Below, piece by piece: positions 8,561-29,316 of a DNA stretch of 64,000 bases (the first letter of the stretch is position 1; every line of letters begins with the position of its first letter). Made by a program: the position numbers and the translations under genes. Where the stretch lies: NCBI GenBank assembly GCA_050287785.1, contig JBNKCO010000018.1, positions 73,149 to 137,148 on the forward strand. The letters run 5' to 3'. Source of the DNA: Bacteroidales bacterium (GTDB lineage Bacteria > Bacteroidota > Bacteroidia > Bacteroidales > UBA10428). The notes below the pieces were generated by a model, which saw only the letters and a list, made by a program, of their open reading frames with translations, ran no database searches and was not told the DNA's origin.

Positions 8561-8570
8561 AACTTTCTAT

Positions 8571-14354: not shown

Positions 14355-14417
14355 ATAAAACAAAAAAAACCCGCAAGTAAAGTACTTGCGGGTTTTTATT
14401 TTTTCAAAAATTTTGGC
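14355..14417. repeat. left copy of 63/64-nt imperfect direct repeat (candidate att site)
   Basis: Aligns end to end with 35963-36026 (identical hairpin core, few mismatches, one 1-nt indel); ends in ttttggc then diverges. Confidence 0.8.
14362..14404 (+). terminator. rho-independent terminator after the 1062-aa gene (bidirectional shape)
   Basis: A-tract, 10-bp stem cccgcaagta / tacttgcggg (14370-14379 / 14383-14392), 3-nt loop, T-tract. Confidence 0.8.
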
Positions 14418-14833: not shown

Positions 14834-16171
14834 TCACTCGATAAATTCCCCTAAATAATATAGTCTCAAAAGATCCTTTTTGAGAAGAGTTTCATATCTC
14901 AAAAGTATATGCGCATTTTCGATTTCATTGAATTGTTTTTTATAAGACAAAACGGTAAATATATTGTCTTTTCCATTTGAATATAATTGCATCCGATTAC
15001 TCAGAATTGTTCTAATACTTAATAACTCTTGCTCTGCTAATGTGAGCTGTTCATTTGTATACTTTGCTTCAAAAAACTGATTCTTTAGTGAGTTTATAAT
15101 AATCATGTATTCTGATTCGATAGTATTTTCATGTTTTCGAATATCGTTTTCACTCAATAAAATCTGTGTTTTTATTTCCCTATTATTAAAAATTGGAATT
15201 GTTAATCGCAAACCAGCAAAACCAGAATAGGAATTCTGAAGAAACGACTCCCAATTACCTCCCTCTGCCCAAGGCTGAAAGCTTGAGTATCCGACTGTCA
15301 AGGAATAGTCAAGACTCAAAGTAGGTAAATTTTTGGCTCGAATAATTTGATGATTCCCTTTCAGATAAGATTGATGCAAATTTAAAATTTTGAGATATGG
15401 ATTATTCTCAACTGATACCTTTTCGAAAATATTATAGTTTTTTAATATGGTATCTGACTCTGTTTTAATACTCTCATAAAAAGTATAATCAAGGTCTAAA
15501 CTATCTTTTGTTTGAAGTGTGTTATTCAGTTTAATAATAGCTAGATCGTAATTTTTCTGCGCAATAAGGAGACTTTTTCTTTCTTGGATTAGTTGTAGTT
15601 TTGATTCTTCGACATCATTCTGCATGATTTTACCTAACTCAAACAATTTTTCTGTATAAGTTAATATACTATCAGCTATATCAAGTTGCTTTCTATTCGC
15701 TACTAATTGTTCATGGCTAAACAAAACTGTAAAGAAGCTTTCAATCACCTTACCTGTGATATCAAACATTGAATACTCTGCTTCAGATAATTCTCTATTC
15801 AAAGATATATTCGCAAGCTTTACTTTCTTCCAGTTATTAAACCAATTGAAAAGCATCGTGTTTCCGTTCAAGGAAAATGTACTGGAATAATTCTCCAAAA
15901 CCGGGGAATGTATTTCATTATGATTAATATTATGTGTAAAGGATGCATTTATTGAAGGAATAAATCCTAATTCAGCATTGCTAACACTATATTCCGCATT
16001 TTGAATTTCAACATCGGCATTTTTCAACTCTACCCTATTTTCTAATGCAATATCGATGCAATCAGATAGTTTAAGTTTTTGCTGTCCCAGCAATATTGGC
16101 TTTATAAGAAAGCTAAGGAGTATACTAATAATTGCGATAGTATGTGCCCTGGGTTTGGTATTTATTTGCAT
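14834..16171 (-). CDS. TolC-like outer-membrane efflux protein (OEP family)
   Basis: 445 aa; signal sequence; two coiled-coil/beta repeat halves typical of outer-membrane factors; 6 nt downstream of the C39 ABC exporter. Confidence 0.8.
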   Translation of the reverse strand: MQINTKPRAHTIAIISILLSFLIKPILLGQQKLKLSDCIDIALENRVELKNADVEIQNAEYSVSNAELGFIPSINASFTHNINHNEIHSPVLENYSSTFSLNGNTMLFNWFNNWKKVKLANISLNRELSEAEYSMFDITGKVIESFFTVLFSHEQLVANRKQLDIADSILTYTEKLFELGKIMQNDVEESKLQLIQERKSLLIAQKNYDLAIIKLNNTLQTKDSLDLDYTFYESIKTESDTILKNYNIFEKVSVENNPYLKILNLHQSYLKGNHQIIRAKNLPTLSLDYSLTVGYSSFQPWAEGGNWESFLQNSYSGFAGLRLTIPIFNNREIKTQILLSENDIRKHENTIESEYMIIINSLKNQFFEAKYTNEQLTLAEQELLSIRTILSNRMQLYSNGKDNIFTVLSYKKQFNEIENAHILLRYETLLKKDLLRLYYLGEFIE

Positions 16172-16177
16172 ATGATA

Positions 16178-18367
16178 TTAGTTTTTTGAGAGTTCTTCTT
16201 TAAAATGTATCTCATTATACATCTGGCTGTAAAGATTATCTGTTTTCATCAAGGTTTCTTTAGCACCTGAAATTTCAATAGTATTATTCTGAAGGATGTA
16301 GATTTTATCTGCTTTGTTTGCAATTTTCAGTTGATGGGTAACCAAAATTATCCCACATTTTTCTCTAAACTTGTTTAACACAGACAATGCAAAATTCTCT
16401 GTATTCCTATCCATTGCAGAAGTAGGTTCGTCGAGCAATAACAATGATGGCTTTTTAGTTAGAGCTCTACATAAACTAATCAATTGTTTTTGCCCGCCAG
16501 AAATATTAATTCCTTCTTCACCCAACATTGTGGAATAACTTTGAGGAAACAAAGAGAAATATTTATCAAATTCATGCTTTTGACAAAATTCAATGCACCT
16601 ATTTACTTCATTTTCATCTCCGCCCATGCATAAATTATCCATTAATGTTCCATTGAATATGGAAGCCTCCTGGGGTACTACACCTAGAATGTGGCGGTAA
16701 TCTGGTGGAAATACATTGTCTAGGTTACTGTTATTTAAAAATGTTTTACCACTTTCTGGTTTATAGAACCCTTGCAATATATTTAGCAATGTAGTTTTTC
16801 CGCCTCCACTCTCACCTAGAATAGCAACAACTTCACCTTTACTCAGAGATAAGTTTATATTTGATAGTATTTGTTTCCTTCCCGGAAAACGATAACTAAC
16901 GTTTTCTAATTCAAGGCTTTTGAAGGATATATCAATTGTAGTTCGTTCTTCCTGAATATTATATTCCGGATTAATAGTTGCAAATTCATACATTCTGTTG
17001 AAAGCTACTTTTGCTCCTTGTAGAGTAATATTTGCAAAGGCCAAAGAAGCTATTGCTGGAAATAAAGAGCCTGTTATACCTAAAACAGCCATTAGTGTTC
17101 CTGTTGACATACTAGTAGACACAACTAACCATGAACCTAGGCCCAAGACACCAATTGTTATAATTACCCCAACTATATCAGCAAGAGCCTGAATGCTTAT
17201 GCCTAGTTTACCTAGGTGAAATATTTTATCCTGAAAATGGCCGTAAATTAGCTGATTAATATTTGTAAAAATATTCTCTTTGTTTTGTGTTTTGATTGAA
17301 CTAACACATTCCATTGTATTAATATAATTGCTTGTTTTATGGGAGTTTGCTGACATTACTTCTTGTTGGGCATTTACAATATTCTTATGGTATTTAAATG
17401 ATATAAATGCAAATATTGGTAAGCTTGAAATTACAATAGTCCCAATAATTCCGGAATAAACGAATAATACAACCAAACCTACTACTACTAAAAGAAAATT
17501 CATCAGCAATTCCATAACAACCTGAGTAATTGCAATCTGTATTCTGGAGGTATCGTCCATACGTGCAACAAGTTCTCCTACTCTTCTGTTATCAAAAAAT
17601 GATTTAGGTAGGAATAAAAGGCTGCTATAAAAACTGCCAATTAACCTGATATTAAAACCTTTACTTTGAGTAATTCCAAAGAATCCGGTAAGGTACGATA
17701 AACCACTGCGGGCGATTAGAAGTGTTAATAGTAATATTGTACCAAGAATAATTTTTTCGTAATCTTTTTCTGGTAGAATAACATCAATTAACTTTTGGGA
17801 ATAAATAGCCATGCCAAGACCAAGAGCAGATACCATAAGGCTTAAAATGAATATGATACCAAGCAAACTTTTATCCTCTTCTATTATTTGCTTAAACCAT
17901 TTTATTTTATTCTTTTTTTCTTTTTGAACTTTCTCGAAACTACTATTGGGTGTTAATTTTAAAAGAGCTTTTGAGCGCCAGATAGCTTCTAATTCCTGCT
18001 CTGTATATTTAACAATGCCCTTTGCCGGATCTCCAATAATAAATTTCCCTGAATTAAAACGATAGCAAACAACATAATGCTGCATACTGTTATCTAAGAT
18101 AACGTGAAGAATAACAGGCGTTTCATTTTTTTTCAACCATTCAATTCCTACCTCAAGCCCTTCTGCATTAAAACCACATTTTTGCGAACTCTGATATAAA
18201 CCTAAAATAGTTGTGCCTTGTTTAGAAGTACCGCTTAACTCTCTGAGTTGTTCAAGACTTTTTCTGCCACCGTTATAATTAATAACCGATAACAAACAAG
18301 CTACTCCACAGTCTGACTGATCTTGTTGAACAACAAATGTTTTAGATAGACTTTTCTTTTCTTTCAT
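16178..18367 (-). CDS. peptidase C39-containing ABC transporter (PCAT, bacteriocin processing/export)
   Basis: 729 aa; N-terminal C39 domain (QQDQSDCGVACLLSVINYNGG, later HYVVCY); 6-TM domain; Walker A GESGGGKTT, signature ISGGQKQ, Walker B LLLLDEPTS. Confidence 0.9.
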   Translation of the reverse strand: MKEKKSLSKTFVVQQDQSDCGVACLLSVINYNGGRKSLEQLRELSGTSKQGTTILGLYQSSQKCGFNAEGLEVGIEWLKKNETPVILHVILDNSMQHYVVCYRFNSGKFIIGDPAKGIVKYTEQELEAIWRSKALLKLTPNSSFEKVQKEKKNKIKWFKQIIEEDKSLLGIIFILSLMVSALGLGMAIYSQKLIDVILPEKDYEKIILGTILLLTLLIARSGLSYLTGFFGITQSKGFNIRLIGSFYSSLLFLPKSFFDNRRVGELVARMDDTSRIQIAITQVVMELLMNFLLVVVGLVVLFVYSGIIGTIVISSLPIFAFISFKYHKNIVNAQQEVMSANSHKTSNYINTMECVSSIKTQNKENIFTNINQLIYGHFQDKIFHLGKLGISIQALADIVGVIITIGVLGLGSWLVVSTSMSTGTLMAVLGITGSLFPAIASLAFANITLQGAKVAFNRMYEFATINPEYNIQEERTTIDISFKSLELENVSYRFPGRKQILSNINLSLSKGEVVAILGESGGGKTTLLNILQGFYKPESGKTFLNNSNLDNVFPPDYRHILGVVPQEASIFNGTLMDNLCMGGDENEVNRCIEFCQKHEFDKYFSLFPQSYSTMLGEEGINISGGQKQLISLCRALTKKPSLLLLDEPTSAMDRNTENFALSVLNKFREKCGIILVTHQLKIANKADKIYILQNNTIEISGAKETLMKTDNLYSQMYNEIHFKEELSKN

Positions 18368-18742
18368 TTTGGACTAGTCTTTTAAAATAAAAACTTCGGT
18401 GCTTTTTTATATGTGATAGATTGTGATTGTATTGGTAAAATATTAAATATCGCAAAAACAAAATCCGCATTCATCACTACTCTTATACAGTCTTTAAAAA
18501 CTAGCCTTTTCCCCATTAGAAGACAACCAATATAGAGGCAACAGGTAGCGAAAATTGATTTCACAAAAAGAATCAGAATATTACTAATGTAACCTAGCCA
18601 TCCAGAAAGTTAAAATGGCATGTGAACTAGATATCACTCCATACCTCAATAAGGGTTTAGTGAAAATTAAGGCATAAGTATTCCGATTCTGAAAAGATCA
18701 ATGGGATTCTTCAAAACAATAATTACTATGTTTGCAATTAAT

Positions 18743-19246
18743 TTAACTTAACAATGAAGCTATTTTTAAATCAATCATTTTTCTTAAATACGAATGATAG
18801 AATGTTCCCCATAAAGGTTTATCTTGAAAGTACGTTATATCATTTTTATCGGTTTCAATAACAACTGGAATTTCAAAAGCGGCCCAATGTTTATTTGAAA
18901 GCTTTGAGCAAAACTGTTTTGCGTCTTCATTAGCTGTGTTTCCAATTAAAACAGCAATTGAAACAACTCCTGAATGCAAACCTCTGGGTAAGCCTTTCTT
19001 ATTTTTTAAAGCATATTTATAAACACTTTGAGAATAATGTTCAATTTCTTCAGGTGAAATAATTGCATTTTTAGAAATCCCAACACTAATAAATATATTT
19101 AGTTGAGTGGCGAACCAAACTAACTTAAACTTATTAAATTGTGCTATAATGCTTTCTGCATTGTAGTCAAATTTATATTTGGAATGGAAAATATTACTGC
19201 CTATAGATTCCATTTCAAAGCGTTTTAATAATTCTGTTTTACTCAT
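18743..19246 (-). CDS. hypothetical protein (167 aa), unknown function
   Basis: Long ORF co-directional with the bacteriocin run; no motif recognised. Confidence 0.55.
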   Translation of the reverse strand: MSKTELLKRFEMESIGSNIFHSKYKFDYNAESIIAQFNKFKLVWFATQLNIFISVGISKNAIISPEEIEHYSQSVYKYALKNKKGLPRGLHSGVVSIAVLIGNTANEDAKQFCSKLSNKHWAAFEIPVVIETDKNDITYFQDKPLWGTFYHSYLRKMIDLKIASLLS

Positions 19247-19846
19247 AATTCCACTTTTTTCTTAAATATTGTACTGTGTCTTAAGCTCTATATTATTCAA
19301 GCTCTTTTGTAAACTAAAATTATAGAGGCTTAATTGTTGATAGCAAGCAGGATACTCCATAGTCAGATTGGTCTTTCTGCCTTATAAAAGGATTGTTTTG
19401 ATTCATTTTCGAGAAAGATTGGAAATAAGTATCCTAAAATATAACACAGAACAATAAGATGTATAACTTACATTGAGTTAGGTTTTTACTGATATTTTGC
19501 CTTTAAGTAGGTCAGTTATCCGAGATCTCTATAATTTCAGGGAAACACACACTATCAAGTGGAGATGATCAATTTTTATATTCATTTCTATTATTTGACA
19601 ATGTATCCACTCCAATTAGGGCTATCCATGGAAAATAAATCCTTTAAGAGTTTTTTTATTACTCAAGATCTAATATTTATGTGTTTAAACTATATAAAGA
19701 GAAAACCGATAAATGACATGACTTAATTTCTTAAAATTGCTCATTTTTCAAGATAACATATTAAGGTTTTGCCTACTAAACATTACCACCACCAGAGGAC
19801 ATGGTTTTAACGACTATAATAAATTAAGATAGATTGTCGTCATTAT

Positions 19847-20053
19847 TTAGTGAAGCTTATCAACTAACTTTTTTTCCTTGATGCCCTCAACTATTAAAGT
19901 CAATCCAGCTAGGAGAAATGCAGTCCACCCAATCCAATCAATAATCCTAATATCAAGTTCGTTAACAAATCTATCTATCACATAAATAATAAGGATAGCA
20001 AATAGTACTATCCCAAAATAAATTTTTGTGTTTGGTTTTAATATTCTTTTCAT
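19847..20053 (-). CDS. small two-TM membrane protein (candidate immunity/accessory)
   Basis: 68 aa with two hydrophobic helices (IYFGIVLFAILIIYVI; WTAFLLAGLTLIV). Confidence 0.5.
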   Translation of the reverse strand: MKRILKPNTKIYFGIVLFAILIIYVIDRFVNELDIRIIDWIGWTAFLLAGLTLIVEGIKEKKLVDKLH

Positions 20054-20121
20054 AACAATAGGTTTATATAGTTAAAAATAATACTTTTCTTATCAAAATA
20101 CTCGTCGGTATTATACCAAGA

Positions 20122-20649
20122 TTACAAACATGTGTTTTGTTTCGTTAAACTTTCTATTATCTGGTCGTTAAGCTTGAATTCGTACTTATTGACCAACTGT
20201 CCTTTATAGAAAATGTATGTACTGGGAGTATGTCTTATTTTAAAATAAGTATTACCCACCTCTTCTACTGAATAAGATAATATCTTTAATTGTTTATCAA
20301 CAAAGGGGAAGTCTTCTTTGAATTCAATAAGTTTTTGTAAATCTTGTTCAGAAACAAGTAAAATCTGAAATTTATCCAATAATTTATTACTAGAAGATAT
20401 TAATTGAATTTCATCCCAACACAGATAACAGTCAGTATTAAAGAAAACTATCATAAGGTTTTCTCTGTTTATAGAATCAGAATTATACTCTTCACCCGAA
20501 AGGTTCATAAATGAAAACTTAGGTAGATTAGCTATTCCTTTTAAATCCTCGCGTTTTTTCAAAACTATATTCGCAACAAAAAAAAGCAGAATACAAATGA
20601 TAATAAAATAGGACGTATTTATAATTGTACGAGATTTACCAGAAATCAT
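20122..20649 (-). CDS. membrane-anchored thioredoxin-fold thiol-disulfide oxidoreductase (TlpA/redoxin-like)
   Basis: 175 aa; N-terminal TM anchor (YFIIICILLFFVANIV); redox motif FFNTDCYLCWDE (CxxC); 4 nt from the upstream gene. Confidence 0.75.
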   Translation of the reverse strand: MISGKSRTIINTSYFIIICILLFFVANIVLKKREDLKGIANLPKFSFMNLSGEEYNSDSINRENLMIVFFNTDCYLCWDEIQLISSSNKLLDKFQILLVSEQDLQKLIEFKEDFPFVDKQLKILSYSVEEVGNTYFKIRHTPSTYIFYKGQLVNKYEFKLNDQIIESLTKQNTCL

Positions 20650-20653
20650 AATA

Positions 20654-21295
20654 TCATAAAGTTAGAAATAATAAAGTAATCATTAAAAGGAATAGAATCA
20701 TAAAGGCACCATATCCAAACAATCCTATTTTTAGACTGTCAACAAGTTTAAGGTTTTTGTTTTTCTTATATAGAAACCACGATATTAATAAACCATAAAG
20801 CACCTCAAACACATTTATTTTTGACATTGCAAAATACAACCAATTATAGGTTTCTGCTACATTAGGAAAAACCCCTATTAAAGAAAACAATGTTGTTGGA
20901 TTTATGTCACCTCCATAATTGAGTAATAGAACAATATTCATTATACCAGACACTAACATGATAGACTCTGATAACAAGACTATTCTTATCCCGTCATAAG
21001 TAGTGATGGAAATATTCCTTAGTAACCCTGTTGTACGAATTGCTGTAAGTACAAAGACAATTTTTAAAAGAAAAAAAACAACAACTTCAAGATATATTAA
21101 CCAAGTAAATTTCTGTTGCAAGGAAAACATTTTTTTTATTGCTTCTGTATTAATGTACCCCTCTTTTGAAAAAAGATTAACATAAAAATCATAGTCCATT
21201 ACTTTATTAAGTAGCAAATACGACAGTATCAATTTAATCAAAAGTATTATCAGAAGAATTTGAGCATTACTAATAACAAAGGTGTGTATTTTCAT
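20654..21295 (-). CDS. polytopic membrane protein (about 5-6 TM), candidate bacteriocin immunity
   Basis: 213 aa, hydrophobic helices throughout; first gene downstream of the bacteriocin precursor. Confidence 0.65.
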   Translation of the reverse strand: MKIHTFVISNAQILLIILLIKLILSYLLLNKVMDYDFYVNLFSKEGYINTEAIKKMFSLQQKFTWLIYLEVVVFFLLKIVFVLTAIRTTGLLRNISITTYDGIRIVLLSESIMLVSGIMNIVLLLNYGGDINPTTLFSLIGVFPNVAETYNWLYFAMSKINVFEVLYGLLISWFLYKKNKNLKLVDSLKIGLFGYGAFMILFLLMITLLFLTL

Positions 21296-21337
21296 TTACT
21301 AAAGCTTTTTTAACTCATATTAATGTATCAATGTAAA

Positions 21338-21361
21338 TGCCTGTGCAATATAATACAGGCA
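21338..21361 (-). terminator. weak hairpin between bacteriocin gene and downstream genes (possible attenuating terminator)
   Basis: 7-bp stem tgcctgt / acaggca with 10-nt loop; only a T-poor tail on the minus strand. Confidence 0.3.
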
Positions 21362-21386
21362 CTTACAATAAAGTATATCTAATTAC

Positions 21387-21590
21387 TTAAAAACCACATG
21401 CTTCTCCCATTGCAATAGCGCCATAACTTGATGCTACAAAGCCCCCAGCACAAGCCAAACCTACAGAAGCAGCGCAGGTAGCAGCTGATATTACAACTAC
21501 TCCAGCATATAAGCCAATCATAATACCACATTTCCAACTGCCACCTTCAAGGTTTTCCATTTGTTCTAAACTTAAACTTTTCGTTTTCAT
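21387..21590 (-). CDS. double-glycine-leader class II (Blp-like) bacteriocin precursor, 4-Cys glycine/alanine-rich core
   Basis: MKTKSLSLEQMENLEGG / SWKCGIMIGLYAGVVVISAATCAASVGLACAGGFVASSYGAIAMGEACGF. The leader fits LSxxELxxIxGG. I prefer the ATG at 21590 over the track start at 21614. Confidence 0.85.
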   Translation of the reverse strand: MKTKSLSLEQMENLEGGSWKCGIMIGLYAGVVVISAATCAASVGLACAGGFVASSYGAIAMGEACGF

Positions 21591-21689
21591 AATTTTAATT
21601 TTTAAATTAGACATTAAGTTGAATTAATGTCCCCGTTGGCGCCTAACAGAGACAAAGCTTTATTTTGGATTTAACAAAACTCAAATAAA

Positions 21690-22157
21690 TTACTGTCCTA
21701 GAGGATTATTGTCCACATATCCATTCTTCCTAAGATATTGTTGAATGGCCATGTTTAAGCCCATACCCCATTGTTGTCCTAACACCATACTTTCTTGCGA
21801 AATAGCCGGAGTTTTTTCAGCTAATTTTTTGCCAGTTTCCGATTGATAGAAAGCGATAATTGCTTTTATATCTTCATGAGTAAAATGTTTTTGATAAATT
21901 GGAATTAGTTTCTTGCTAAACGATGTAACTTGCTCATCGAACACCTCTGTTTTAATTTCTGACCACGCCTTATCAGGTACATCTGGCATTGTTGCTTTTA
22001 GTTGCGCTACCATCTGATCGAAAATCATGTCATAGCTTTTTAACGACCCATTAAGTTTCTGCATTTTAGCAACATCTTTTGCAAACTGATCATCTTGCCC
22101 TATTAGGTTGGATGAGAACATTATTGCTACTATGGCAAATTGAAAAAACAACTTCAT
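21690..22157 (-). CDS. DUF2059-like periplasmic protein
   Basis: Signal peptide; IPIYQKHFTHEDIKAIIAFYQSETGKKLAEKTPAISQESMVLGQQWG resembles the DUF2059 signature. Confidence 0.7.
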   Translation of the reverse strand: MKLFFQFAIVAIMFSSNLIGQDDQFAKDVAKMQKLNGSLKSYDMIFDQMVAQLKATMPDVPDKAWSEIKTEVFDEQVTSFSKKLIPIYQKHFTHEDIKAIIAFYQSETGKKLAEKTPAISQESMVLGQQWGMGLNMAIQQYLRKNGYVDNNPLGQ

Positions 22158-22215
22158 AATGATTTAATTGTAAGGTTAATATTAACAGTATCAAAAATAT
22201 AAATGTAGAGTGCCA

Positions 22216-22455
22216 CTATAAAGCACTCGTAAAAAAAGACTCAAAAAAATTGAATTCATTCTTAAGAATATATGTGTTTTTGCATTTGCAAAACTCAATT
22301 TCTGCACCAAGGCTTCTTAGCTCATCCAGGTAACGAAATAAAGTTCGCCTTGAAATTTGCATTCTTGTTGCAAGCTCCTCTGATGTTCCTCTATTTTCCC
22401 TCTTTATAAATTCGACAAGCTGTGCCATCTTTAGTATGTAATTTTGGTTGCTCAT
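22216..22455 (-). CDS. small HTH (HTH_11/DeoR-N-like) transcriptional regulator
   Basis: 79 aa; TSEELATRMQISRRTLFRYLDELRSLG helix-turn-helix; alternative start at 22428. Confidence 0.65.
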   Translation of the reverse strand: MSNQNYILKMAQLVEFIKRENRGTSEELATRMQISRRTLFRYLDELRSLGAEIEFCKCKNTYILKNEFNFFESFFTSAL

Positions 22456-22460
22456 ACTGA

Positions 22461-23543
22461 TTATTTTAAGTCTGTGTCGGGAATTTTAACTTGATTGCCT
22501 AATTCCAAACCTTCAAGTATTTCTGTTTTAACGCCATCTGATATTCCGGCAATCATTGCTTTCTTAATGTATTTGTTCTCAACATCGTGCACATAAACAA
22601 AAGCACTGTCTTCTTCATAAGATATGTATTTTTCTTCTAAACATAAAACACTATCCTTCTCTGCAATTGTAATAATAGCAACTGCATTTATTCCTCCGTA
22701 AAGTTTTTGGTCGCAGTTTATTATAGCTGCCTCAACTGGAAATTTAACTATCCCATTTTTATCTATTCCTTTCGGATATATTTTATCTATCTTCCCTTTA
22801 ATCTTAACTCCTTCAGTAAAAACAGTCTCGATAAATAATTCCTGTTCTTTATAAATTTTATTCAAATCCCTTTCCTGTATTTCTCCAAAGAATTTCAATG
22901 AATTCATATTAGCTATAACAGCAATAGTTGTTCCTTCGTTAAAGTTGTTTTGCTTGATTACAGGGGAACCCGGTTTTGCAAACAATGTCAAAATTGTACC
23001 AGAGGCAGATGCATATATAATATTTGATAATTCCTTGTCCGAAGTAATAACTCCCTTTGTTGCCATTAGGAGTTTTTTTCTTGCACTTTCGAATTGTTCT
23101 ATTGTTTCTTTATATTTTGCATCAACACTTTCAAATTCTGCTTTTGAGCTCAGCCCTGCTTCGCACAAACTCCTTTCTCGTTCATAGTTTATCTTAGCCG
23201 TATTTTTCTGAATTTCAAAAAGACTAACTGCCGATTTTAGGCTTTCAACATCCATGGGTTCTGTTAGATTTCTAATTTCTGCAATCTTTTGCCCCTCTTC
23301 AACTACTTGGCCAACTTCAACAAAAACCTTTTCAACAATACCATTTATTTTTGATTTAACCTTTATCTCCTCTGCAGGCATTATTTTCCCATTTATCCTC
23401 CTGTCAATTTTTATTGATTCTATTGTGGGGTTGCCTATTAGATAATTAGATGTCACGTCTTTGCGATTGATCTCTTTGAAAACAATCATGCCAATAACTC
23501 CAACAAAGAATACCAGTAGCAATATATTTAAGAGTTTTTTCAT
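22461..23543 (-). CDS. efflux periplasmic adaptor (MFP, HlyD/MacA-like)
   Basis: 360 aa; N-terminal TM anchor; lipoyl-like hairpin (INGIVEKVFVEVGQVVEEGQKIAEI), coiled coil, beta-barrel. Confidence 0.85.
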   Translation of the reverse strand: MKKLLNILLLVFFVGVIGMIVFKEINRKDVTSNYLIGNPTIESIKIDRRINGKIMPAEEIKVKSKINGIVEKVFVEVGQVVEEGQKIAEIRNLTEPMDVESLKSAVSLFEIQKNTAKINYERERSLCEAGLSSKAEFESVDAKYKETIEQFESARKKLLMATKGVITSDKELSNIIYASASGTILTLFAKPGSPVIKQNNFNEGTTIAVIANMNSLKFFGEIQERDLNKIYKEQELFIETVFTEGVKIKGKIDKIYPKGIDKNGIVKFPVEAAIINCDQKLYGGINAVAIITIAEKDSVLCLEEKYISYEEDSAFVYVHDVENKYIKKAMIAGISDGVKTEILEGLELGNQVKIPDTDLK

Positions 23544-23672
23544 TATTTATTAGATTTAGTCTCAAGATGTGAGACATTAGACATGAGACTATCTGAATTC
23601 ATTATTTTAAATTTTTAATTCTCCATTATTCATTATAAATTACAAATTCTTCTCTCTTAACTCTTCACCCTA

Positions 23673-24926
23673 TCATAAACTCCTCATCGCTACAACCGGT
23701 TTAATTTTCGCAGCCTTAAAGGCCGGAAGAAATCCTGCTACAAGTCCTGAAAATAATAATATCGTAATAGCAAGAACTATGTATTTTGGCTCAAGTGCAG
23801 TATGTGTAAAAAATCGATCATCACCTGTGCTTTTTGAAACCATAAGGTTTATTAACTTTAGAAATCCTGTACCAATCACCAATCCTAATATTCCAGACAA
23901 AATAGTTAGAATAACAGATTCAAAGAGAAACTCTTTTAGAACCACAACAGAGGATGCTCCAACTGCTTTTTTTATCCCGATCTCACGAGTTCGCTCTTTT
24001 ACAATAATGTACATAACATTACTTACTCCAATCATTCCACTTAGTAACAAACAGCAACCAACGAAAACAAAAAAAATGTTTAAGCCATTAAAAAGTTTTG
24101 AAAAGCTCGACATTTGTTCTTCATAGTTCACTACATATAAAGCTTTATTATTATTACTATCGAAATGATACTTTTTTGCTAATAATGATGTTATTTTCTC
24201 GGCATACCATTTTGTGTTTCCATCTGCTACAGTAATACCGAAAGACTTAAATTCATGAATAGGCTTGATAACTTCTGAAAAGCTTGTGTAAGGAATGAAT
24301 ATACAGTTTTGTTCATTCATCGACATTAGCGACTTATTATCCATAATTCCAACTACTAGAAAGTCTGTTCCGTTAACAGAAATGTTTTTATTAATTGGGT
24401 TGGAATTGCTGAAGAACTGTTTAACAATTCGGTCTCCGATTATGCAAATATTTCGGCCTTCATGGATATCGCGCTTATTGATTCTTCGTCCTTGTTTAAC
24501 TTTAAGGTTTTTTAATTTAAAGCTTTGTGTATTTATACCCTTTATTGTGAAATGTCCTCGTTCAGAATTATGTATTACAACTGTTCCGGAATTCTGAATT
24601 TCTGGAGATATTGCAATAATATTTGGAATACTTTTTTTTATTACTTCCAAATCAAAGAATTTAAAAGTAATATCTTTTCCTGAATCGCGCATTGAAATAT
24701 TTTCATCAGATTCTCCGCCGTAAAACATGATGGTTTTTTGAGTAAATCCTTTAAATAATCTATATACTCCTTCCTGCACTCCTCCACTAATCCCTAAGAG
24801 AACAATTAGAATAAAGATTCCCCAAGCAATTCCAAAAGAAGTTAGCAGGGTTCTTAATTTGTGAGCTTTAAGATTACTGTATATTTCTTTAACTAATTCA
24901 TAATATTTCTGAAAAGGCACTTTCAT
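23673..24926 (-). CDS. MacB-type ABC permease (MacB periplasmic core domain + FtsX)
   Basis: 417 aa; N-terminal KLRTLLTSFGIAWGIF helix, large periplasmic loop, three C-terminal TM helices, EIGIKKAVGAS motif. Confidence 0.85.
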   Translation of the reverse strand: MKVPFQKYYELVKEIYSNLKAHKLRTLLTSFGIAWGIFILIVLLGISGGVQEGVYRLFKGFTQKTIMFYGGESDENISMRDSGKDITFKFFDLEVIKKSIPNIIAISPEIQNSGTVVIHNSERGHFTIKGINTQSFKLKNLKVKQGRRINKRDIHEGRNICIIGDRIVKQFFSNSNPINKNISVNGTDFLVVGIMDNKSLMSMNEQNCIFIPYTSFSEVIKPIHEFKSFGITVADGNTKWYAEKITSLLAKKYHFDSNNNKALYVVNYEEQMSSFSKLFNGLNIFFVFVGCCLLLSGMIGVSNVMYIIVKERTREIGIKKAVGASSVVVLKEFLFESVILTILSGILGLVIGTGFLKLINLMVSKSTGDDRFFTHTALEPKYIVLAITILLFSGLVAGFLPAFKAAKIKPVVAMRSL

Positions 24927-25632
24927 AAAAGGGCTGAGATTGGATTAGGGTTTTATCATTGACTATTCTGCCATCAACTAAATTAATTATTCGATTTGTT
25001 TGGGCTGCAATATTATTATCGTGTGTAACTAATATAATTGTTTTTCCTTCTGAGTTGATATCTTCTAATACAAGCATTATTTCTTCCGATGTTTTTGAAT
25101 CTAAAGCACCTGTTGGTTCGTCGGCCAAAATAATTTTTGGATCAGTTATTAAAGCTCTTGCAATTGCAACTCTTTGTTTTTGTCCTCCTGAAAGTTCATC
25201 AGGCAAATGTTTTGCTCTATCTGACAAACCCAATTTATCGAGAAAAAACATTGCTTTCTCTAATCTTATCCTATTTGAGAAATTCTGATAATATAAGGGA
25301 AGAGCAACATTTTCAATAGCTGTCCGATGTGAAAGAAGATTAAATGATTGGAAAATAAAACCGAGTGTTGTACTTCTTAATAAAGCTTGTTCACTATCGG
25401 TTAAATTTTTAGTTGATTTACCATTCAGAAAATATTCTCCGGAATCGTATTCATCAAGTATACCAATAATGTTTAGCAAAGTAGATTTTCCACAACCAGA
25501 TGGGCCCATTATAGAAATATACTCACCTTGTTTAATACTTAAACAAAGTTTATCTAACGCCACAACTGTATTTGAATGCGTTGAATAGTCTTTCCTTAAT
25601 TCTTTTATTTCTATTAACTTATTTTGAGACAT
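24898..25632 (-). CDS. ABC ATP-binding protein (MacB/LolD-type)
   Basis: Walker A GPSGCGKST, signature LSGGQKQRVAIARAL, Walker B ILADEPTGALD. ATG at 25632 preferred over the TTG at 25644. Overlaps the permease by 29 nt. Confidence 0.9.
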   Translation of the reverse strand: MSQNKLIEIKELRKDYSTHSNTVVALDKLCLSIKQGEYISIMGPSGCGKSTLLNIIGILDEYDSGEYFLNGKSTKNLTDSEQALLRSTTLGFIFQSFNLLSHRTAIENVALPLYYQNFSNRIRLEKAMFFLDKLGLSDRAKHLPDELSGGQKQRVAIARALITDPKIILADEPTGALDSKTSEEIMLVLEDINSEGKTIILVTHDNNIAAQTNRIINLVDGRIVNDKTLIQSQPFYESAFSEIL

Positions 25633-26068
25633 TCCTTTTAACAATCAATTGAAAAAACATATTTTAATTAAAGGGTTGAAAATGATTATAATCCTATATT
25701 TTACATTGTAATGATACAACCGAAAAGATAACAATGAAAATATTTTATGCTAATGCGGCTAATCTCTATTCCAATGAAGAAACCTGCACCACTATTGAAA
25801 AATAAGAAAACTTGTTTTAGTGTAAATGCGCACAAAGTGAACCAATAAATTGACTTTGTATTCAATGCCTTATATAGTCGGCTTAGCATGCAAGGTATGA
25901 CTAATTATATTCTGTCTATAAGCTTCACTAACTTCGTTGCACTCTACTTGAAATCCAGTCATTCCGATGCACGTTCGGGACTCCTGAACCCCAGGTCTCT
26001 CGCGCCTCGTTATTGATGCTTACAGAACAGACTTTTGGAAAAATGCAGACTTTATGGACAAACTCTAA

Positions 26069-26178: not shown

Positions 26179-28380
26179 CTAATGAAATGCTTTTTCTTTT
26201 AGAGAATACTTGAGATGACCGGTCTGCCAAAATGCAAAAGAATATACATTTGCCAATTGTTCATAATATATTGATTTAGTATCATTCAAGCCATGCCCGG
26301 ATTTATAATTCACCGAGAATATAATCGGTTTGTCTGAAATGTTATTGGCTTGAAGTTTGGCAGCAAATTTCCCGGGTTGCCATGCAATTACACGTGGATC
26401 ATTCATGCCAGTTGTAATTAAAGTAGCCGGATAGTCCGTATTCATCTTTATATGAAGATAAGCATCCATCTCAATAAGAGCCATACACTCTGTAGAATCT
26501 TTTATTGTTCCAAACTCTTTGGCATTATTAGGGCCATTAGGGGTTTCTTCATTTCTAAGTGGATTCATCATTCCAACTTCTGCAATAGCCACAGCAAACA
26601 AGTCTGGCCTTTCTGTTAAAGCACGTCCAATAAGTATTCCTCCTGCACTCCCTCCCCTGATTACTGTTTTATTTTTAGATGTGTACCCCTCTTTAATCAT
26701 AAATTCAGTACAGGCTATAAGATCTTTCCATGTATTTGGCTTGGTTATCTTTTTACCCTCTTGATACCAATTGTCTCCTTTTTCTCCTCCTCCCCTTACA
26801 TGAGCTATACACAAAATACCTCCTTCTTCTACCCAGGTTAACCATTTTGGATTAAAGTAAGGTCTGATGGAATGTCCATAGGAACCATATCCATAGATCA
26901 TTGTCGGATGTTGTCCATTTAATGAAATATTCTTTTTATGTATCACAGATAGTGGAACTTTTTCTCCATCATACGAGGAAACAAGCAGCTCTTTTAATAC
27001 AAAATCATCAAACTCTGGGAAAAATGTTTTTGGTTCAAGATTTTCTTCAATAAATGTGTTTTTAGTAAAATTGTATTGATATCGGTTATAATCATTTATC
27101 CAGCCTATGGTTGATACCCATAATTCTGGATAATTGGTACCTTTATTAAAAATATTTATCCTACCTGATGGATTTGGTAAGACTATCTCATTTTCTTTTC
27201 CATCGTTTAAACTATATAGTTTGCCTTCAACACCATTTTTAGTACTTGTATAATAAAGGCAGTTAGAGGTTTGTTTTATATCTCTGATAACTTCGTCATG
27301 TTTTTCGTCTACCAGTACGGTCGCATTTTTTATATCAGGATCTCTTAACAAAGAACTCAACACTTGAAAGTTTGAAGAATTAAGTGCTGACAAACATATA
27401 AAAGTAGTATCCTCAAATATTATTTTTTCTACCTTATCCGCTTTCTTATGTAGAGGTTGCCATTCAAGATTTCCCTTTTGAATATTTTTAAGCAGTCCAT
27501 AATATCCATCATGGTATGCTGTAGCTCCACCAATATTTACATATAAATATTGATCTTCCTCTGACTGACACATAACAATAGGAAAATCTTCTGACCTCAA
27601 GTTAAGCTCAGGATGAGTCTCTCTACTTAATAAAACATTTAGTTTTTTGGGATCATCTCCTATTTTATAGAAAACAGACATCGTGTTTTTTAAAAAATTT
27701 TCTGAAGTATGATCTATTTCAGGTAAATGCACATACAAAATACCACTATTATCCGGAAGCCAACTTATCCCACCAATTCCTGTTGGCCAACAATGATCGA
27801 TAATTTGTGGCAATACTTTCCTGTTTCTCATATCTATAAAGATTATCTCTGAAACTTCTTCACCATTATGCGACAATGATACAGCTATATAGTCACCATT
27901 CCAACTTGGTTTAATATAATTAATAACATAGGTATTACCTGTCTCTATCTTGAAATTTTTGGGATCAAATAATAGTTCATCTTTGCTACTGAAACTCTCT
28001 CGATAAAACAAACGAGCTACATCCTCATCAGCTCCCTGCTTTAAAAAGAAATACTGATCGTTTCCTGTTACATATACCTTCCAGACTTCAAACGATACAC
28101 GTTGGTCATACATCTTCATTTTTTCTATCAATTCTGCTTTGCCAGTAATATTCCAAAAAATTCTTTTTGCAAATTCAGATTCTTCTTTAAACCATTTTTG
28201 TACAAGAGTATCTTTTAAGTTTTCAATATTTCTATAATCATCCTGAATAGTTTTACCAAAATACTTTTCTGAAACAATTTGCATTGGTGCTTCCGGATAA
28301 TCAAAACGTGATGAATTTATTTTCTCAGACTGATTACATCCAATTAATAAGATCAAAAGAAGTGGGCTTAGTTTTTTCAT
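26179..28380 (-). CDS. prolyl oligopeptidase (peptidase S9A), lipoprotein
   Basis: 733 aa; lipobox LLIGC; propeller region; catalytic domain with GGSAGG nucleophile elbow, NDPRV Asp, SGHG His. Confidence 0.9.
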   Translation of the reverse strand: MKKLSPLLLILLIGCNQSEKINSSRFDYPEAPMQIVSEKYFGKTIQDDYRNIENLKDTLVQKWFKEESEFAKRIFWNITGKAELIEKMKMYDQRVSFEVWKVYVTGNDQYFFLKQGADEDVARLFYRESFSSKDELLFDPKNFKIETGNTYVINYIKPSWNGDYIAVSLSHNGEEVSEIIFIDMRNRKVLPQIIDHCWPTGIGGISWLPDNSGILYVHLPEIDHTSENFLKNTMSVFYKIGDDPKKLNVLLSRETHPELNLRSEDFPIVMCQSEEDQYLYVNIGGATAYHDGYYGLLKNIQKGNLEWQPLHKKADKVEKIIFEDTTFICLSALNSSNFQVLSSLLRDPDIKNATVLVDEKHDEVIRDIKQTSNCLYYTSTKNGVEGKLYSLNDGKENEIVLPNPSGRINIFNKGTNYPELWVSTIGWINDYNRYQYNFTKNTFIEENLEPKTFFPEFDDFVLKELLVSSYDGEKVPLSVIHKKNISLNGQHPTMIYGYGSYGHSIRPYFNPKWLTWVEEGGILCIAHVRGGGEKGDNWYQEGKKITKPNTWKDLIACTEFMIKEGYTSKNKTVIRGGSAGGILIGRALTERPDLFAVAIAEVGMMNPLRNEETPNGPNNAKEFGTIKDSTECMALIEMDAYLHIKMNTDYPATLITTGMNDPRVIAWQPGKFAAKLQANNISDKPIIFSVNYKSGHGLNDTKSIYYEQLANVYSFAFWQTGHLKYSLKEKAFH

Positions 28381-28574: not shown

Positions 28575-29297
28575 CTAAGAAATATTCAATGCCTTAAGCA
28601 CCCCTTTTTTATAAGTTATTCCTATTGGGATATTTACTTTTTTATTCTTCCTTTCAATTAATATCTCACTACCTCTAACCGATTCTATTTTATCAATTGC
28701 CATTATATAAGACTTATGAATTCTAATAAAAATATCTTTTGGCAATATCTCCATTATGGAATTCATTGATTTATAAATAATATGCTTATTTTCTTCCATC
28801 ACAATTATAATATAATTCCTAGCAGCTTCAATGTATAGAATATCGTTAAAATCAATTTTAACCTTTTTCCCATCTACATCGGCAAAAAAGAAATTATGAA
28901 TTGGTTCTGCAGTTCTCTGTTTGTCCAGATCATTTAAAATTCGATCTACCGATTTTTTAAATCTTTTAAATGTTACTGGTTTCAATATATAATCAGATAC
29001 TCCCAACTCGTAACCGCTTAAAGTATAATCAATGTGCCCGGTTGTTAAAACTACATGCGGAATATTATGGCCCCACCTTTCTTTCATATTCTCAATTAAA
29101 TCAATTCCAGTAAATTCGGGCATTTGTATATCCAAAAACATTATATCTGGCTTATTGCTATCTAAAAAAGCAAGTACATCAATAGACTTGGTGCTTGCAT
29201 ACATTAATGCTAGCTGTGGTATTTTATTTATATGGTCTTTAATAAGGTTAATTGCCTCTTCCTGGTCATCGACAACTATGCAATTGTATTGTTTCAT
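28575..29297 (-). CDS. LytTR-family response regulator
   Basis: Receiver (IVVDDQE, FLDIQMPEFTG, ILKPV) plus LytTR domain (FIRIHKSYIMA). Confidence 0.9.
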   Translation of the reverse strand: MKQYNCIVVDDQEEAINLIKDHINKIPQLALMYASTKSIDVLAFLDSNKPDIMFLDIQMPEFTGIDLIENMKERWGHNIPHVVLTTGHIDYTLSGYELGVSDYILKPVTFKRFKKSVDRILNDLDKQRTAEPIHNFFFADVDGKKVKIDFNDILYIEAARNYIIIVMEENKHIIYKSMNSIMEILPKDIFIRIHKSYIMAIDKIESVRGSEILIERKNKKVNIPIGITYKKGVLKALNIS

Positions 29298-29316
29298 TGT
29301 TTTTTTTGTGAATTTC

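Follow-up and report, generated by a model that had tools for sequence, protein, structure and literature searches.

Bacteroidetocins of Bacteroides and Phocaeicola are made by a four-gene system whose C39-peptidase ABC exporter (PCAT) normally has no adaptor (Coyne et al. 2019; PMC6671954). Full activity depends on the peptide, on a 5-TM protein and on a thiol oxidoreductase alike, and the peptides are GG-cleaved and disulfide-bonded, their crossing of the outer membrane being unexplained (PMC6671954). MacB-type pumps take their cargo from the periplasm, including the disulfide-bonded STII, pyoverdine and dispersin (PMC5985334, PMC8277102). The E. coli heat-stable enterotoxin STII is a small peptide whose disulfide bonds form by oxidation in the periplasm, ahead of its expulsion by MacAB-TolC (PMC5985334).

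The locus described here lies in a 64-kb window, the whole stretch of DNA analysed, from a Bacteroidales bacterium. The window is low in GC and of Bacteroidota origin, with T9SS cargo. A minus-strand run of 12 co-directional genes had been proposed in the initial annotation, and profile searches found all 12 with the domain content first described. The order from 5' to 3' is ATPase, permease, adaptor, HTH_11, DUF2059, peptide, polytopic protein, Trx-like protein, two unknowns, PCAT and outer-membrane factor (OMF). The features are:

24898..25632, minus strand, MacB/LolD/DarD-type ABC ATPase, a separate polypeptide (ABC_tran 1e-31)
23673..24926, minus strand, MacB-type permease (MacB_PCD 3e-28, FtsX 6e-19)
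22461..23543, minus strand, membrane-anchored periplasmic adaptor of MacA/RND type by profile (RND_mfp TIGR01730, 98.9 bits, cut-off 94.9)
22216..22455, minus strand, HTH_11 regulator, 79 aa (HTH_11 5e-8), starting 5 nt past the adaptor stop
21690..22157, minus strand, DUF2059 protein with a signal-peptide-like hydrophobic N-terminus (PF09832 4.6e-23)
21387..21590, minus strand, bacteriocin precursor with GG leader, 67 aa (from the translation and gene calls elsewhere)
21332..21367, minus strand, 13-bp stem-loop just past the peptide stop (RNA fold, z = -2.3 for a 105-nt stretch)
20654..21295, minus strand, polytopic membrane protein, 213 aa, Cys-free (five hydrophobic segments, four of them strong, one weaker)
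20122..20649, minus strand, membrane-anchored Trx-like protein, a TlpA/ResA-like thiol-disulfide oxidoreductase by family profile, active site CYLC
19847..20053, minus strand, two-TM hairpin protein, 68 aa (two hydrophobic segments)
19332..19409, minus strand, 26-aa PCAT N-terminal relic (tblastn search of the window, E 0.005)
18743..19246, minus strand, soluble protein, 167 aa, 43% identical to the gene after the peptide in a related locus (L027)
16178..18367, minus strand, PCAT whose C39 domain is catalytically complete (C39 7.5e-31, ABC_membrane, ABC_tran)
14834..16171, minus strand, TolC-like OMF (OEP 5.7e-38, two repeats), starting 6 nt past the PCAT stop
14365..14397, both strands, strong bidirectional intrinsic-terminator-like hairpin (15-bp stem and a T-run on each strand)

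The C39, OEP, MacB_PCD/FtsX and HlyD_D23 domains expected at the outset were all matched in the profile searches, and the coordinates confirmed the 29-nt overlap of the ATPase and permease genes. Intergenic gaps of 129, 375 and 600 nt occur within the run, which ends at the bidirectional terminator-like hairpin. Colicin V in Proteobacteria, with which the locus had been compared at first, was the wrong baseline, as the host belongs to Bacteroidota and the core is that of a described bacteroidetocin-type locus.

This core consists of the PCAT, the peptide, the polytopic protein and the Trx-like protein. The C39 residues Q14, C20, H97 and D113 of the PCAT are all present as read off the sequence, and its match to TIGR01193 (5e-124) lies below the subfamily cut-off. 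The early remark that this PCAT has no adaptor beside it extends to its relatives: MFP, OMF and MacB genes were absent from six related loci (L001, L003-L005, L027 and L028) in the sequence at hand, up to 10 kb on each side. These loci carry TM-Trx-PCAT or peptide-PCAT, with GG/Cys peptides upstream. The precursor comprises a 17-aa leader, MKTKSLSLEQMENLEGG, and a 50-aa core that is Gly/Ala-rich, hydrophobic and neutral, with Cys at core positions 4, 22, 30 and 48. Translation from 21614 would instead give 75 aa; gene calls elsewhere begin at M9 of this longer form. The four cysteines noted earlier are thus present, but across the peptide family (18 clusters with a conserved leader) only the outermost pair is conserved, as a near-invariant Cys just past the GG and another near the C-terminus. 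The stem-loop following the peptide gene may act as an attenuator or terminator.

The 213-aa polytopic protein, which had no Pfam or NCBIfam match, resembles the bacteroidetocin 5-TM protein by position and architecture. Its homologues lie directly 5' of Trx-PCAT in L001, L003, L004, L010 and L017, and are also present in L027 and L028. The redoxin assignment of the Trx-like protein was weak from the single sequence (AhpC-TSA 3.6e-4, below the cut-off) but became clear with a profile of eight orthologues, which matched TlpA/ResA/Etrx-type structures in the PDB at 1.6e-14. C74, C77 and P142 are invariant in the alignment, the proline standing where the cis-Pro of thioredoxin is expected, and six of the eight family members matched AhpC-TSA/Redoxin. 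By these matches the protein belongs to the extracytoplasmic TlpA/ResA family. The positive-inside rule was ambiguous for the anchor in all eight orthologues, and an outward topology is suggested by analogy. TlpA/ResA proteins are often reductases, which counts against a route through periplasmic oxidation; there is also no obvious partner to reoxidise such an enzyme, the 5-TM protein being Cys-free.

Three short features lie between the Trx-like and PCAT genes. The 68-aa two-TM protein is a candidate dedicated immunity protein; two-TM proteins of similar size occur 3' of the peptide genes in L026 and L028, the likeness being in size and topology only. The relic is 54% identical to PCAT residues 4-29 and sits between the two unknowns, where the PCAT genes of L010 and L017 start. 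The 167-aa protein had no family match in Pfam or NCBIfam, and its AF2 model was of low confidence.

To this core are added the pump genes. The ATPase begins at an ATG at 25632, giving 244 aa as in the L021 gene call, a TTG at 25644 marking a possible longer ORF. Its best NCBIfam matches were DarD (1.8e-75) and the MacB NBD (3.7e-73), and it also matched the lactococcin-972-type ABC model (2.9e-68), all below the equivalog cut-offs. The best solved relatives of the permease are genuine MacB structures (5LIL, 7.7e-41, residues 15-414, full length), which marks it as a true MacB relative by homology. Its layout is TM1, a large periplasmic core domain and then C-terminal TM segments, of which solved MacB has three; a hydropathy scan showed four hydrophobic peaks. 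The adaptor also matched HlyD_D23 in Pfam, failed TIGR01843 for HlyD type I secretion (30 bits, cut-off 208) and matched the DarC model weakly (9.6e-8, below the equivalog cut-off). Its alpha-hairpin aligns to those of TriA, MexJ and MacA and bears the tip motif R122-x3-L126-x6-S133, and hydropathy places its TM segment at residues 4-22, with about 3 cytoplasmic residues ahead. On these profile matches the adaptor is of MacA/RND type and not of HlyD/CvaA type. The proposal that the sole adaptor is coupled to the MacB-type pump therefore held, as it adjoins the MacB genes and passes TIGR01730, and as the 64 kb encode no other. The pump genes share 22-26% identity with generic Bacteroidota MacAB sets, as against 57-58% with the pump of L010.

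No second OMF gene was found within the 64-kb window. Only four relatives of the OMF above 30% identity were found among 5.8 billion proteins, and the gene just 5' of the relatives' OMF is a PCAT gene or a Wzy_C/TPR gene, itself 3' of the PCAT in L010; in L017 the PCAT and OMF genes overlap by 4 nt. Since the OMF gene lies so close to the PCAT gene and its relatives are PCAT-linked, the channel would be co-expressed with the exporter of the bacteriocin. The sole access to it, however, is through the MacA-type adaptor.

The HTH_11 protein has orthologues in L010 and L025 (55% and 59% identity) and is 29% identical to an 82-aa HTH protein of the pump-less peptide locus L028 (pairwise E 1e-12). 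Because the HTH gene follows the adaptor gene so closely and has this homologue in a pump-less locus, the arrangement suggests that the pump genes share a transcript with a bacteriocin-system regulator. The DUF2059 protein is presumably periplasmic; a promoter-like TAnnTTTG motif lies 42 nt 5' of its gene, and the DUF2059 structures 2x3o and 3oao in the PDB have no assigned function. L010 and L025 likewise have the DUF2059 gene immediately 5' of the peptide gene, which makes three loci in which HTH-DUF2059 borders directly on that gene. Both genes accompany the pump genes in both full blocks, and HTH_11 occurs also in L028. It is likely that HTH_11 is a regulator and DUF2059 a periplasmic helper or binder.

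The full block FtsX-MFP-HTH-DUF2059-peptide-...-TM-Trx-PCAT-...-OMF was found again in L010, with identities of 58% (FtsX), 57% (MFP), 55% (HTH), 53% (DUF2059), 30% (TM), about 21% (Trx), 64% (PCAT) and 44% (OMF). The L010 block differs by internal gene insertions and other downstream flanks. Since the same block recurs in a second genome, the grouping of the genes is beyond chance. Partial blocks occur on two short contigs, L017 and L025, the latter truncated and carrying HTH-DUF2059-peptide; the complete block was recovered in two full-length examples, this locus and L010. Gene identities, family assignments and this conserved linkage are direct observations. Of about ten related loci, six have no pump; since these are the majority, the pump is, judged by gene content, accessory and not the general export route of the family. 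A pump dispensable for the family could be a resistance add-on, which speaks against its use for export.

We consider it about an even chance (roughly 50%) that this is a bacteroidetocin-type (class IIf-like) locus with an acquired dedicated MacAB-OMF pump, in which the peptide passes from PCAT to periplasmic oxidation and then to expulsion by the pump. From the above we infer the topology, step order and cargo of this route as follows. The C39 domain of the PCAT would recognise the double-glycine leader of the 67-aa precursor, cut after G17 and, as in a PCAT family without its own adaptor, move the peptide across the inner membrane only. In the periplasm, the CxxC TlpA/ResA-like protein would oxidise the first and last Cys into an end-to-end staple and could also oxidise the extra inner pair of this peptide; the Cys-free, co-conserved 5-TM protein probably partners it. 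An oxidation step in the periplasm would require a periplasmic intermediate. The MacB ATPase and permease, having no transmembrane substrate path, would load cargo from the periplasmic side, and the oxidised hydrophobic peptide would leave by way of the MacA-type adaptor and the TolC-like channel coupled to the PCAT. The peptide would thereby be kept off the producer's own inner membrane, and secretion and self-protection would therefore be one act. The two-step route of the initial annotation thus stands in part: the adaptor-less PCAT, the MacA-type adaptor, the TlpA/ResA-type oxidoreductase, the Cys pair and the L010 linkage favour it, but the pump is accessory in the family.

The rival that we take most seriously, though clearly less probable, is that the pump serves immunity alone, clearing re-entering or self-made peptide from the periplasm or inner membrane, while most of the bacteriocin gets out by another route, such as lysis, vesicles or a channel encoded elsewhere, as it would in relatives that lack the pump. 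MacB-family transporters such as BceAB, AS-48EFGH and YknXYZ do give peptide resistance or bacteriocin immunity (PMC5985334), most related loci lack the pump, and bacteroidetocin producers are without immunity and may free their toxin by lysis (PMC6671954). Such a role is at odds with the separate small immunity-like two-TM gene and with an OMF coupled to the PCAT gene and not to the pump genes. Moreover, to drive a peptide out of the periplasm by way of an OMF amounts physically to secreting it, so that the distinction between secretion and immunity is quantitative. The earlier alternative, a self-immunity pump whose adaptor is shared with the PCAT, is quite possible in its first half but unlikely in its second, as the adaptor fails the HlyD model. 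That sharing is assumed by a one-step colicin-V-like conduit of PCAT, adaptor and OMF with MacB as a separate immunity transporter, which we regard as improbable. To our knowledge, PCATs have no periplasmic domain on which the membrane-proximal region of an adaptor could dock, and we counted this against it. The conduit would also bypass the family-conserved periplasmic oxidoreductase, and the adaptor scores as RND/MacA-type, has almost no cytoplasmic residues before its TM segment and adjoins the MacB permease gene; related PCATs, too, are adaptor-less. In its favour are the 6 nt between the PCAT and OMF genes, the proteobacterial norm of PCAT, MFP and TolC (PMC12219008) and the puzzle already noted of Bacteroidales BGCs with PCAT and OMP and no detected MFP (PMC10352776).

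A further rival to be taken seriously, rather unlikely but more probable than the one-step conduit, is that MacB-adaptor, HTH and DUF2059 form a general efflux or envelope system, linked to the peptide genes in a few related genomes only by shared regional ancestry. Bacteroidota often carry MacB-type sets together with an MFP and an OMF (L022, L024), complete co-occurrence was found just twice, and large intergenic gaps break up the run. Here, however, no OMF lies beside the pump genes, the sole one being at the far end next to the PCAT; the linkage has outlasted 36-56% protein divergence, internal insertions and changed flanks; HTH-DUF2059 adjoins the peptide gene in three loci, with the HTH type also in L028; and the pump clade is set apart from generic MacAB sets. 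Least probable of all, and by our reckoning very improbable, is that the pump expels the DUF2059 protein (Sec-exported, ~15 kDa), as the MacB-type Aat system expels dispersin, the peptide not being cargo. MacB-type pumps do export ~10-kDa Sec-dependent proteins (PMC8277102), the N-terminus is signal-like, and in each of the two full blocks the gene comes after those for the pump and HTH, as it does after HTH in truncated L025; yet DUF2059 proteins occur widely among bacteria apart from such pumps, and the tie of the OMF to the PCAT would be left unexplained.

Among known systems, darobactin DarBCD, BceAB, AS-48EFGH and the lactococcin-972 ABC transporter likewise place a MacB-type pump inside a peptide-antibiotic locus. 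Because our matches to DarD, DarC and lactococcin-972 all fell short of the equivalog cut-offs, none counts as an orthologue; the Gram-positive systems lack an OMF and act in immunity, and we know of no PCAT or oxidoreductase in the darobactin locus. Pyoverdine of Pseudomonas aeruginosa is matured in the periplasm and then exported by PvdRT-OpmQ. Its precursor first reaches the periplasm through the ABC exporter PvdE, and the genes for the pump lie with those of the pathway; unlike the present peptide, pyoverdine is a non-ribosomal siderophore, and no leader peptidase is involved. Colicin V and the class II microcins (CvaB, CvaA and TolC) share with this locus the GG leader, the C39 PCAT, the Gram-negative setting and the need for an OMF. 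Their route is one-step with an HlyD/CvaA-type adaptor, whereas here a MacA/RND-type adaptor is encoded next to a MacB permease, a conserved periplasmic oxidoreductase is present and related PCATs are adaptor-less. With MacAB-TolC and STII of E. coli, the locus shares a MacB-type ABC transporter, a MacA-type adaptor and a TolC-type channel; here, in contrast, the first step would be by PCAT and not Sec, the oxidant would be TlpA-like and not DsbA, the ATPase is a separate polypeptide and the OMF is encoded in the locus.

The likeness to bacteroidetocin loci, drawn from gene content and architecture, extends to a GG-leader Cys peptide of similar size, a multi-TM protein, a thiol oxidoreductase and an adaptor-less PCAT in the same phylum. 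The order differs, as the peptide gene here precedes the TM protein gene, and the neutral, Gly/Ala-rich, strongly hydrophobic core belongs to a separate small family. Beyond the bacteroidetocin genes there are two further small genes, and new is the addition to the known core of the MacB ATPase, permease, MacA-type adaptor, HTH_11, DUF2059 and PCAT-coupled OMF. If the two-step route is true, the locus offers a testable answer to how the disulfide-bonded peptides of such loci cross the outer membrane.

The genes at 14834-25644 form one co-directional minus-strand run, closed by a strong bidirectional terminator. In 5' to 3' order, the run encodes a MacB-type ATPase, its permease, a periplasmic adaptor, an HTH_11 protein, a DUF2059 protein, the GG-leader peptide, a 213-aa polytopic (5-TM) protein, an anchored CxxC (Trx-like) protein, a 68-aa protein (u68), a 167-aa protein (u167), a C39-peptidase ABC exporter (PCAT) and a TolC-like outer-membrane factor (OMF). 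The gene list and domain assignments of the initial annotation were borne out, and profile searches agreed for each named family. All proteins of the locus are singletons at 90% identity. Intergenic gaps of 129, 375 and 600 nt are present within the run. Search for TAnnTTTG revealed a single intergenic site, upstream of the DUF2059 gene, while a sigma-70 promoter scan, the consensus of which differs from that reported for Bacteroidota, gave no excess over shuffled sequence (66 matches against 61.5). Additional features of the run are as follows.

18743-19246, minus strand: u167, 43% identical to a homologue at 10362-10871 of L027, a related locus in another genome
19332-19409, minus strand: relic of a PCAT N-terminus, 26 aa, 54% identity with the intact PCAT over residues 4-29 of the latter
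21332-21367, minus strand: 13-bp stem-loop directly 3' of the peptide stop codon

The PCAT relic lies inside the 600-nt gap, where PCAT starts in the related loci L010 and L017, and indicates a past rearrangement; its position points to insertion of the u167 segment or to rearrangement of the region. The u167 homologue in L027 follows a peptide gene and belongs to an unrelated 6.2-Mb genome. Judged by this homologue, u167 is a real gene and not a stray ORF. The u167 protein matched no family, and its AF2 model (pLDDT 50) was too uncertain for assignment of a fold. The two-TM u68 resembles small proteins located 3' of peptide genes in two related loci, L026 and L028. The stem-loop following the peptide gene is a possible attenuator, which would set the peptide-to-machinery stoichiometry.

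In gene calls of other assemblies the peptide starts at M9, giving a length of 67 aa. Its 17-aa double-glycine leader, MKTKSLSLEQMENLEGG, carries hydrophobic residues at -4, -7 and -12, which is the pattern of canonical double-glycine leaders (PMC8277102). The core of 50 aa is rich in Gly and Ala, neutral and highly hydrophobic, its cysteines occupying positions 4, 22, 30 and 48. A word-indexed homologue search with the peptide and with the 5-TM protein returned essentially self-matches only. Exhaustive HMMER search of 1.84 billion representatives retrieved only 18 clusters at E<=1e-3, which share the leader and two cysteines, one near-invariant and located just past the cleavage site, the other close to the C-terminus; all the relatives are named 'hypothetical protein'. 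Most members possess exactly two Cys. Therefore, the family trait would be an end-to-end disulfide staple, and the inner pair of the window peptide is lineage-specific. The four cysteines recorded in the initial annotation are present in the window core, and the first and last of them are conserved in the family. Together these sequences make up a small family, as yet without a name, of hydrophobic GG-leader peptides with a predicted end-to-end Cys staple. The pump-less locus L028 holds a multi-bacteriocin array of the same peptide family at 10001-12426, in which a gene for a 2-Cys GG-leader peptide and one for a small multi-TM protein occur as three tandem pairs. The AF2 model of the peptide precursor, built on a 16-sequence alignment, showed a helix-turn-helix with pLDDT 60, too weak for use.

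The PCAT contains C39, ABC_membrane and ABC_tran domains, and the catalytic residues Q14, C20, H97 and D113 are intact. The Trx-like protein on its own gave a weak match to the thioredoxin fold (3.6e-4), but the assignment is solid with a profile of eight orthologues, which matched TlpA/ResA/Etrx-type structures in the PDB at 1.6e-14. The CxxC motif is invariant among the orthologues, and a conserved Pro is present where the thioredoxin cis-Pro is expected. Orientation of the anchor by the positive-inside rule was ambiguous in all eight orthologues. Proteins of the TlpA/ResA type are often reductases. The 5-TM protein shows four strong and one weaker hydrophobic segment and had no family match in profile searches. 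Its homologues are located directly upstream of Trx-PCAT in L001, L003, L004, L010 and L017, and are also found in L027 and L028. A role of the 5-TM protein as a DsbB/VKOR-like reoxidiser was rejected, as it has no cysteine and the alignment has no conserved Cys column.

The ATPase matched ABC_tran (1e-31), and its best NCBIfam matches were DarD, the ATPase of the darobactin exporter, and the nucleotide-binding domain (NBD) of MacB, the match to NF007826 (MacB) being 3.7e-73 over profile positions 3-231. The NBD is thus of the MacB/LolD/FtsE class. The NBD is fused in E. coli MacB, whereas it is a separate polypeptide in the window. The permease gene shares a 29-nt overlap with the ATPase gene. 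The permease itself contains MacB_PCD (residues 26-236) and FtsX (288-410) domains, has an FtsX fold in which a large periplasmic domain separates TM1 from TM2, and aligned over its full length with the MacB structures 5LIL, 5GKO and 5NIK (1e-30 to 1e-41; best, 5LIL at 7.7e-41). The adaptor scored 98.9 bits on the RND/MacA-type model TIGR01730 (cut-off 94.9) but just 30 bits on TIGR01843, the HlyD model for type I secretion (cut-off 208). It has an N-terminal TM at residues 4-22 and almost no cytoplasmic tail. The adaptor hairpin aligns with those of TriA, MexJ and MacA, and R122, L126 and S133 at its tip fit R-x3-L-x6-S, which we take to be the motif docking OMF tips. A metagenome scan with the adaptor found relatives at 22-24% identity only.

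The OMF, which has two OEP repeats, is encoded in the same co-directional run by a gene beginning 6 nt past the PCAT stop codon. No second adaptor or OMF was found in the 64-kb window, in which all ORFs of at least 150 aa were annotated. Only 4 relatives of the OMF with more than 30% identity were detected among 5.8 billion proteins; the next ones, at about 25%, belong to ordinary OMF-MFP or MacB operons and are uninformative on a link with bacteriocins. By its sequence features, the pump, with the OMF as candidate partner, qualifies as a MacAB-TolC-type system (type VII ABC).

We compared the window with related loci in other genomes and contigs. The PCAT genome scan yielded 5 useful loci (L001-L005) at 39-49% identity, none of them from the window's own species. 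The relatives came from Cytophagaceae, Flavobacteriaceae, Chitinophaga, Niabella and unclassified Bacteroidota. An anchored CxxC protein of about 170 aa is encoded directly 5' of PCAT in L001-L005, preceded in L001, L003 and L004 by a multi-TM protein of about 220 aa, and small GG-leader Cys peptides are encoded upstream in L001 and L003-L005. This gene order shows that the TM-Trx-PCAT triad together with a GG/Cys peptide is a conserved Bacteroidota module. L027 has the order LytTR, peptide, u167 homologue, TM, Trx, PCAT, and in L028 the TM, Trx and PCAT genes are followed by three peptide/small-TM pairs and an HTH_11-like gene. MacB, adaptor, OMF and DUF2059 genes were all absent from L001, L003-L005, L027 and L028 within the <=10 kb inspected on each side. 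The proposal that the adaptor is coupled to the MacB genes and that the PCAT has none of its own was upheld, the only adaptor of the window being of the RND/MacA type and these six related PCAT loci having none in the stretch inspected.

The same block as in the window, co-directional and tightly spaced, is present in L010, a 63-kb contig of GCA_041583495.1, and the downstream flanks of the two are unlike. Identities to the window proteins are 58% for the FtsX permease, 57% for the adaptor, 55% for HTH_11, 53% for DUF2059, 30% for 5-TM, 64% for PCAT and 44% for OMF, and the Trx-like protein is also present. Between the window and L010, identity of the pump genes is 57-58%, as compared to 22-26% with ordinary Bacteroidota MacAB sets. 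L010 also encodes a 2-Cys GG peptide, a 4-TM protein of 122 aa and, at 7585-9999 between PCAT and OMF, an 804-aa membrane protein with Wzy_C (O-antigen-ligase-like) and TPR domains. A Wzy_C/TPR gene (39-42% identity) is located just before the OMF gene in L014-L016 as well, and no such gene is present in the window. L017 shows TM-Trx-PCAT-OMF with a 4-nt PCAT/OMF overlap, its contig ending on the upstream side. A peptide relative led to L025, a short contig that carries HTH_11 (59%) and DUF2059 (55%) followed by two peptide genes.

The window HTH gene begins 5 nt past the adaptor gene and seems to share a transcript with the pump genes. Since a homologue of the HTH protein (29% identity, pairwise E 1e-12) is encoded in the pump-less L028, the HTH is part of the bacteriocin system. 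Linkage of the pump to the bacteriocin genes is real, on the basis of two complete and two partial examples. From these gene contents we conclude that the MacB ATPase, permease, adaptor, DUF2059 and OMF represent an accessory module, acquired and kept by a subclade of these bacteriocin loci.

Genes in the neighbourhood of the locus are as follows.

209-2056, plus strand: MsbA-like ABC exporter without C39 (TIGR02203, 8.7e-138, below cut-off)
7784-10391, minus strand: LytTR/PF06580 genes
26179-28380, minus strand: S9 prolyl oligopeptidase, lipoprotein-like and intact, adjoining the pump genes on their upstream side
28575-30357, minus strand: LytTR/PF06580 genes, about 3 kb upstream of the pump genes
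30497-31339, minus strand: 280-aa ORF of S9 paralogue fragments, a few kb beyond the intact S9 gene
31376-32389, minus strand, and 37634-38335, plus strand: LytTR/PF06580 genes
33364-35382, plus strand: LanB-type lantibiotic dehydratase, C-terminal domain complete, lacking some 320 positions from the start of the N-terminal domain model

The three LytTR response regulators and three PF06580 histidine kinases are arranged as two adjacent pairs and a separated kinase and regulator. As a LytTR gene is located directly upstream of the peptide gene in L027, the system at 28575-30357 may regulate the bacteriocin locus; such LytTR control would be analogous to that of Gram-positive class II systems. 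The LanB-type gene lies about 8 kb away from the bacteriocin genes and could be a remnant of a class I lanthipeptide cluster or a split gene of one; no obvious LanC or precursor gene was seen in 32.4-36.8 kb. The MsbA-like exporter shares 24% identity with the ABC portion of the PCAT and is probably housekeeping.

Three features point to a putative periplasmic peptide intermediate: most loci with a PCAT of this family have no adaptor, the oxidoreductase kept by the loci belongs to the TlpA/ResA type, which is extracytoplasmic, and the peptide family retains its Cys pair. MacB-type transporters, which lack a transmembrane path for the substrate, take their cargo from the periplasm, known cargo being disulfide-bonded STII, pyoverdine and dispersin (PMC5985334, PMC8277102). 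If the sole OMF is taken as expressed with the PCAT and reachable only through the MacA/RND-type adaptor, the pump is tied to the bacteriocin pathway. In the most economical model, to which we assign a probability of about 0.5, the PCAT would cleave the peptide and deliver it to the periplasm, where it would be oxidised, and MacB-adaptor-OMF would then eject it to the outside. Since the cargo is a membrane-active-looking hydrophobic peptide, its ejection would protect the producer too, and secretion and immunity would become one activity. A variant in which the MacB pump serves immunity alone is a live alternative, which we consider less likely than the model. The u68 protein is a candidate immunity protein separate from the pump. 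We tentatively extend the export route, with somewhat less assurance than the route itself, to a Bacteroidota subclade with a complete, dedicated three-stage line of PCAT, periplasmic stapling by the TlpA-like and 5-TM proteins, and a specialised MacB-MacA-OMF pump, the channel gene of which is tied to the PCAT. In this line the DUF2059 protein might hold the very hydrophobic peptide in the periplasm.

Literature searches turned up no PCAT that is coupled to a MacB pump. Each element is already known. The arrangement, if true, would provide the first instance in which a PCAT passes its product to a MacB-type pump. Confirmation would show that a PCAT can serve simply as an exporter across the inner membrane of a diderm, would link secretion mechanistically with self-immunity, and would offer a portable export module for production of disulfide peptides in Bacteroidota.

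Proteobacterial colicin V, used as the baseline in the initial annotation, turned out to be the wrong comparison, given the GC content of about 32%, the T9SS Por_Secre_tail sorting domain on several window proteins and the relatives in Bacteroidota. In colicin V and class II microcin systems, an HlyD/CvaA-type adaptor accompanies the PCAT, whereas the sole adaptor of the window is of the RND/MacA type and adjoins the MacB permease. In the absence of an HlyD-type adaptor, the locus does not qualify as a colicin-V-type one-step system. The closer parallel is with the bacteroidetocin regions described by Coyne et al. in 2019, which consist of four genes, for a five-TM protein, a GG-leader four-Cys peptide, a thiol oxidoreductase and a peptidase-containing ABC transporter (PMC6671954). 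The window core has the same four parts and, by gene architecture, qualifies as a bacteroidetocin-type (class IIf-like) locus. Bacteroidetocins A/B are further characterised by antibacterial activity exerted through BamA. The five-TM, peptide and oxidoreductase genes are each required for full bacteroidetocin activity, the peptides arise by GG cleavage and run as disulfide-bonded species, Bacteroides is without general Dsb machinery, and no immunity gene was found (PMC6671954). How bacteroidetocins cross the outer membrane is unexplained, lysis being possible according to the authors (PMC6671954), and a puzzle has been noted in Bacteroidales, where peptide clusters combine a PCAT with an outer-membrane protein yet contain no MFP (PMC10352776). 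The proposed route, if true, would be the first concrete answer on outer-membrane crossing, both by bacteroidetocin-type peptides and by the products of PCAT+OMP loci that lack a T1SS adaptor. The window and L010 provide a natural experiment, in which the missing outer-membrane step appears to be encoded as a MacB-type pump, and confirmation would extend the two-step MacB logic of STII, pyoverdine and dispersin to leader-cleaved ribosomal bacteriocins.
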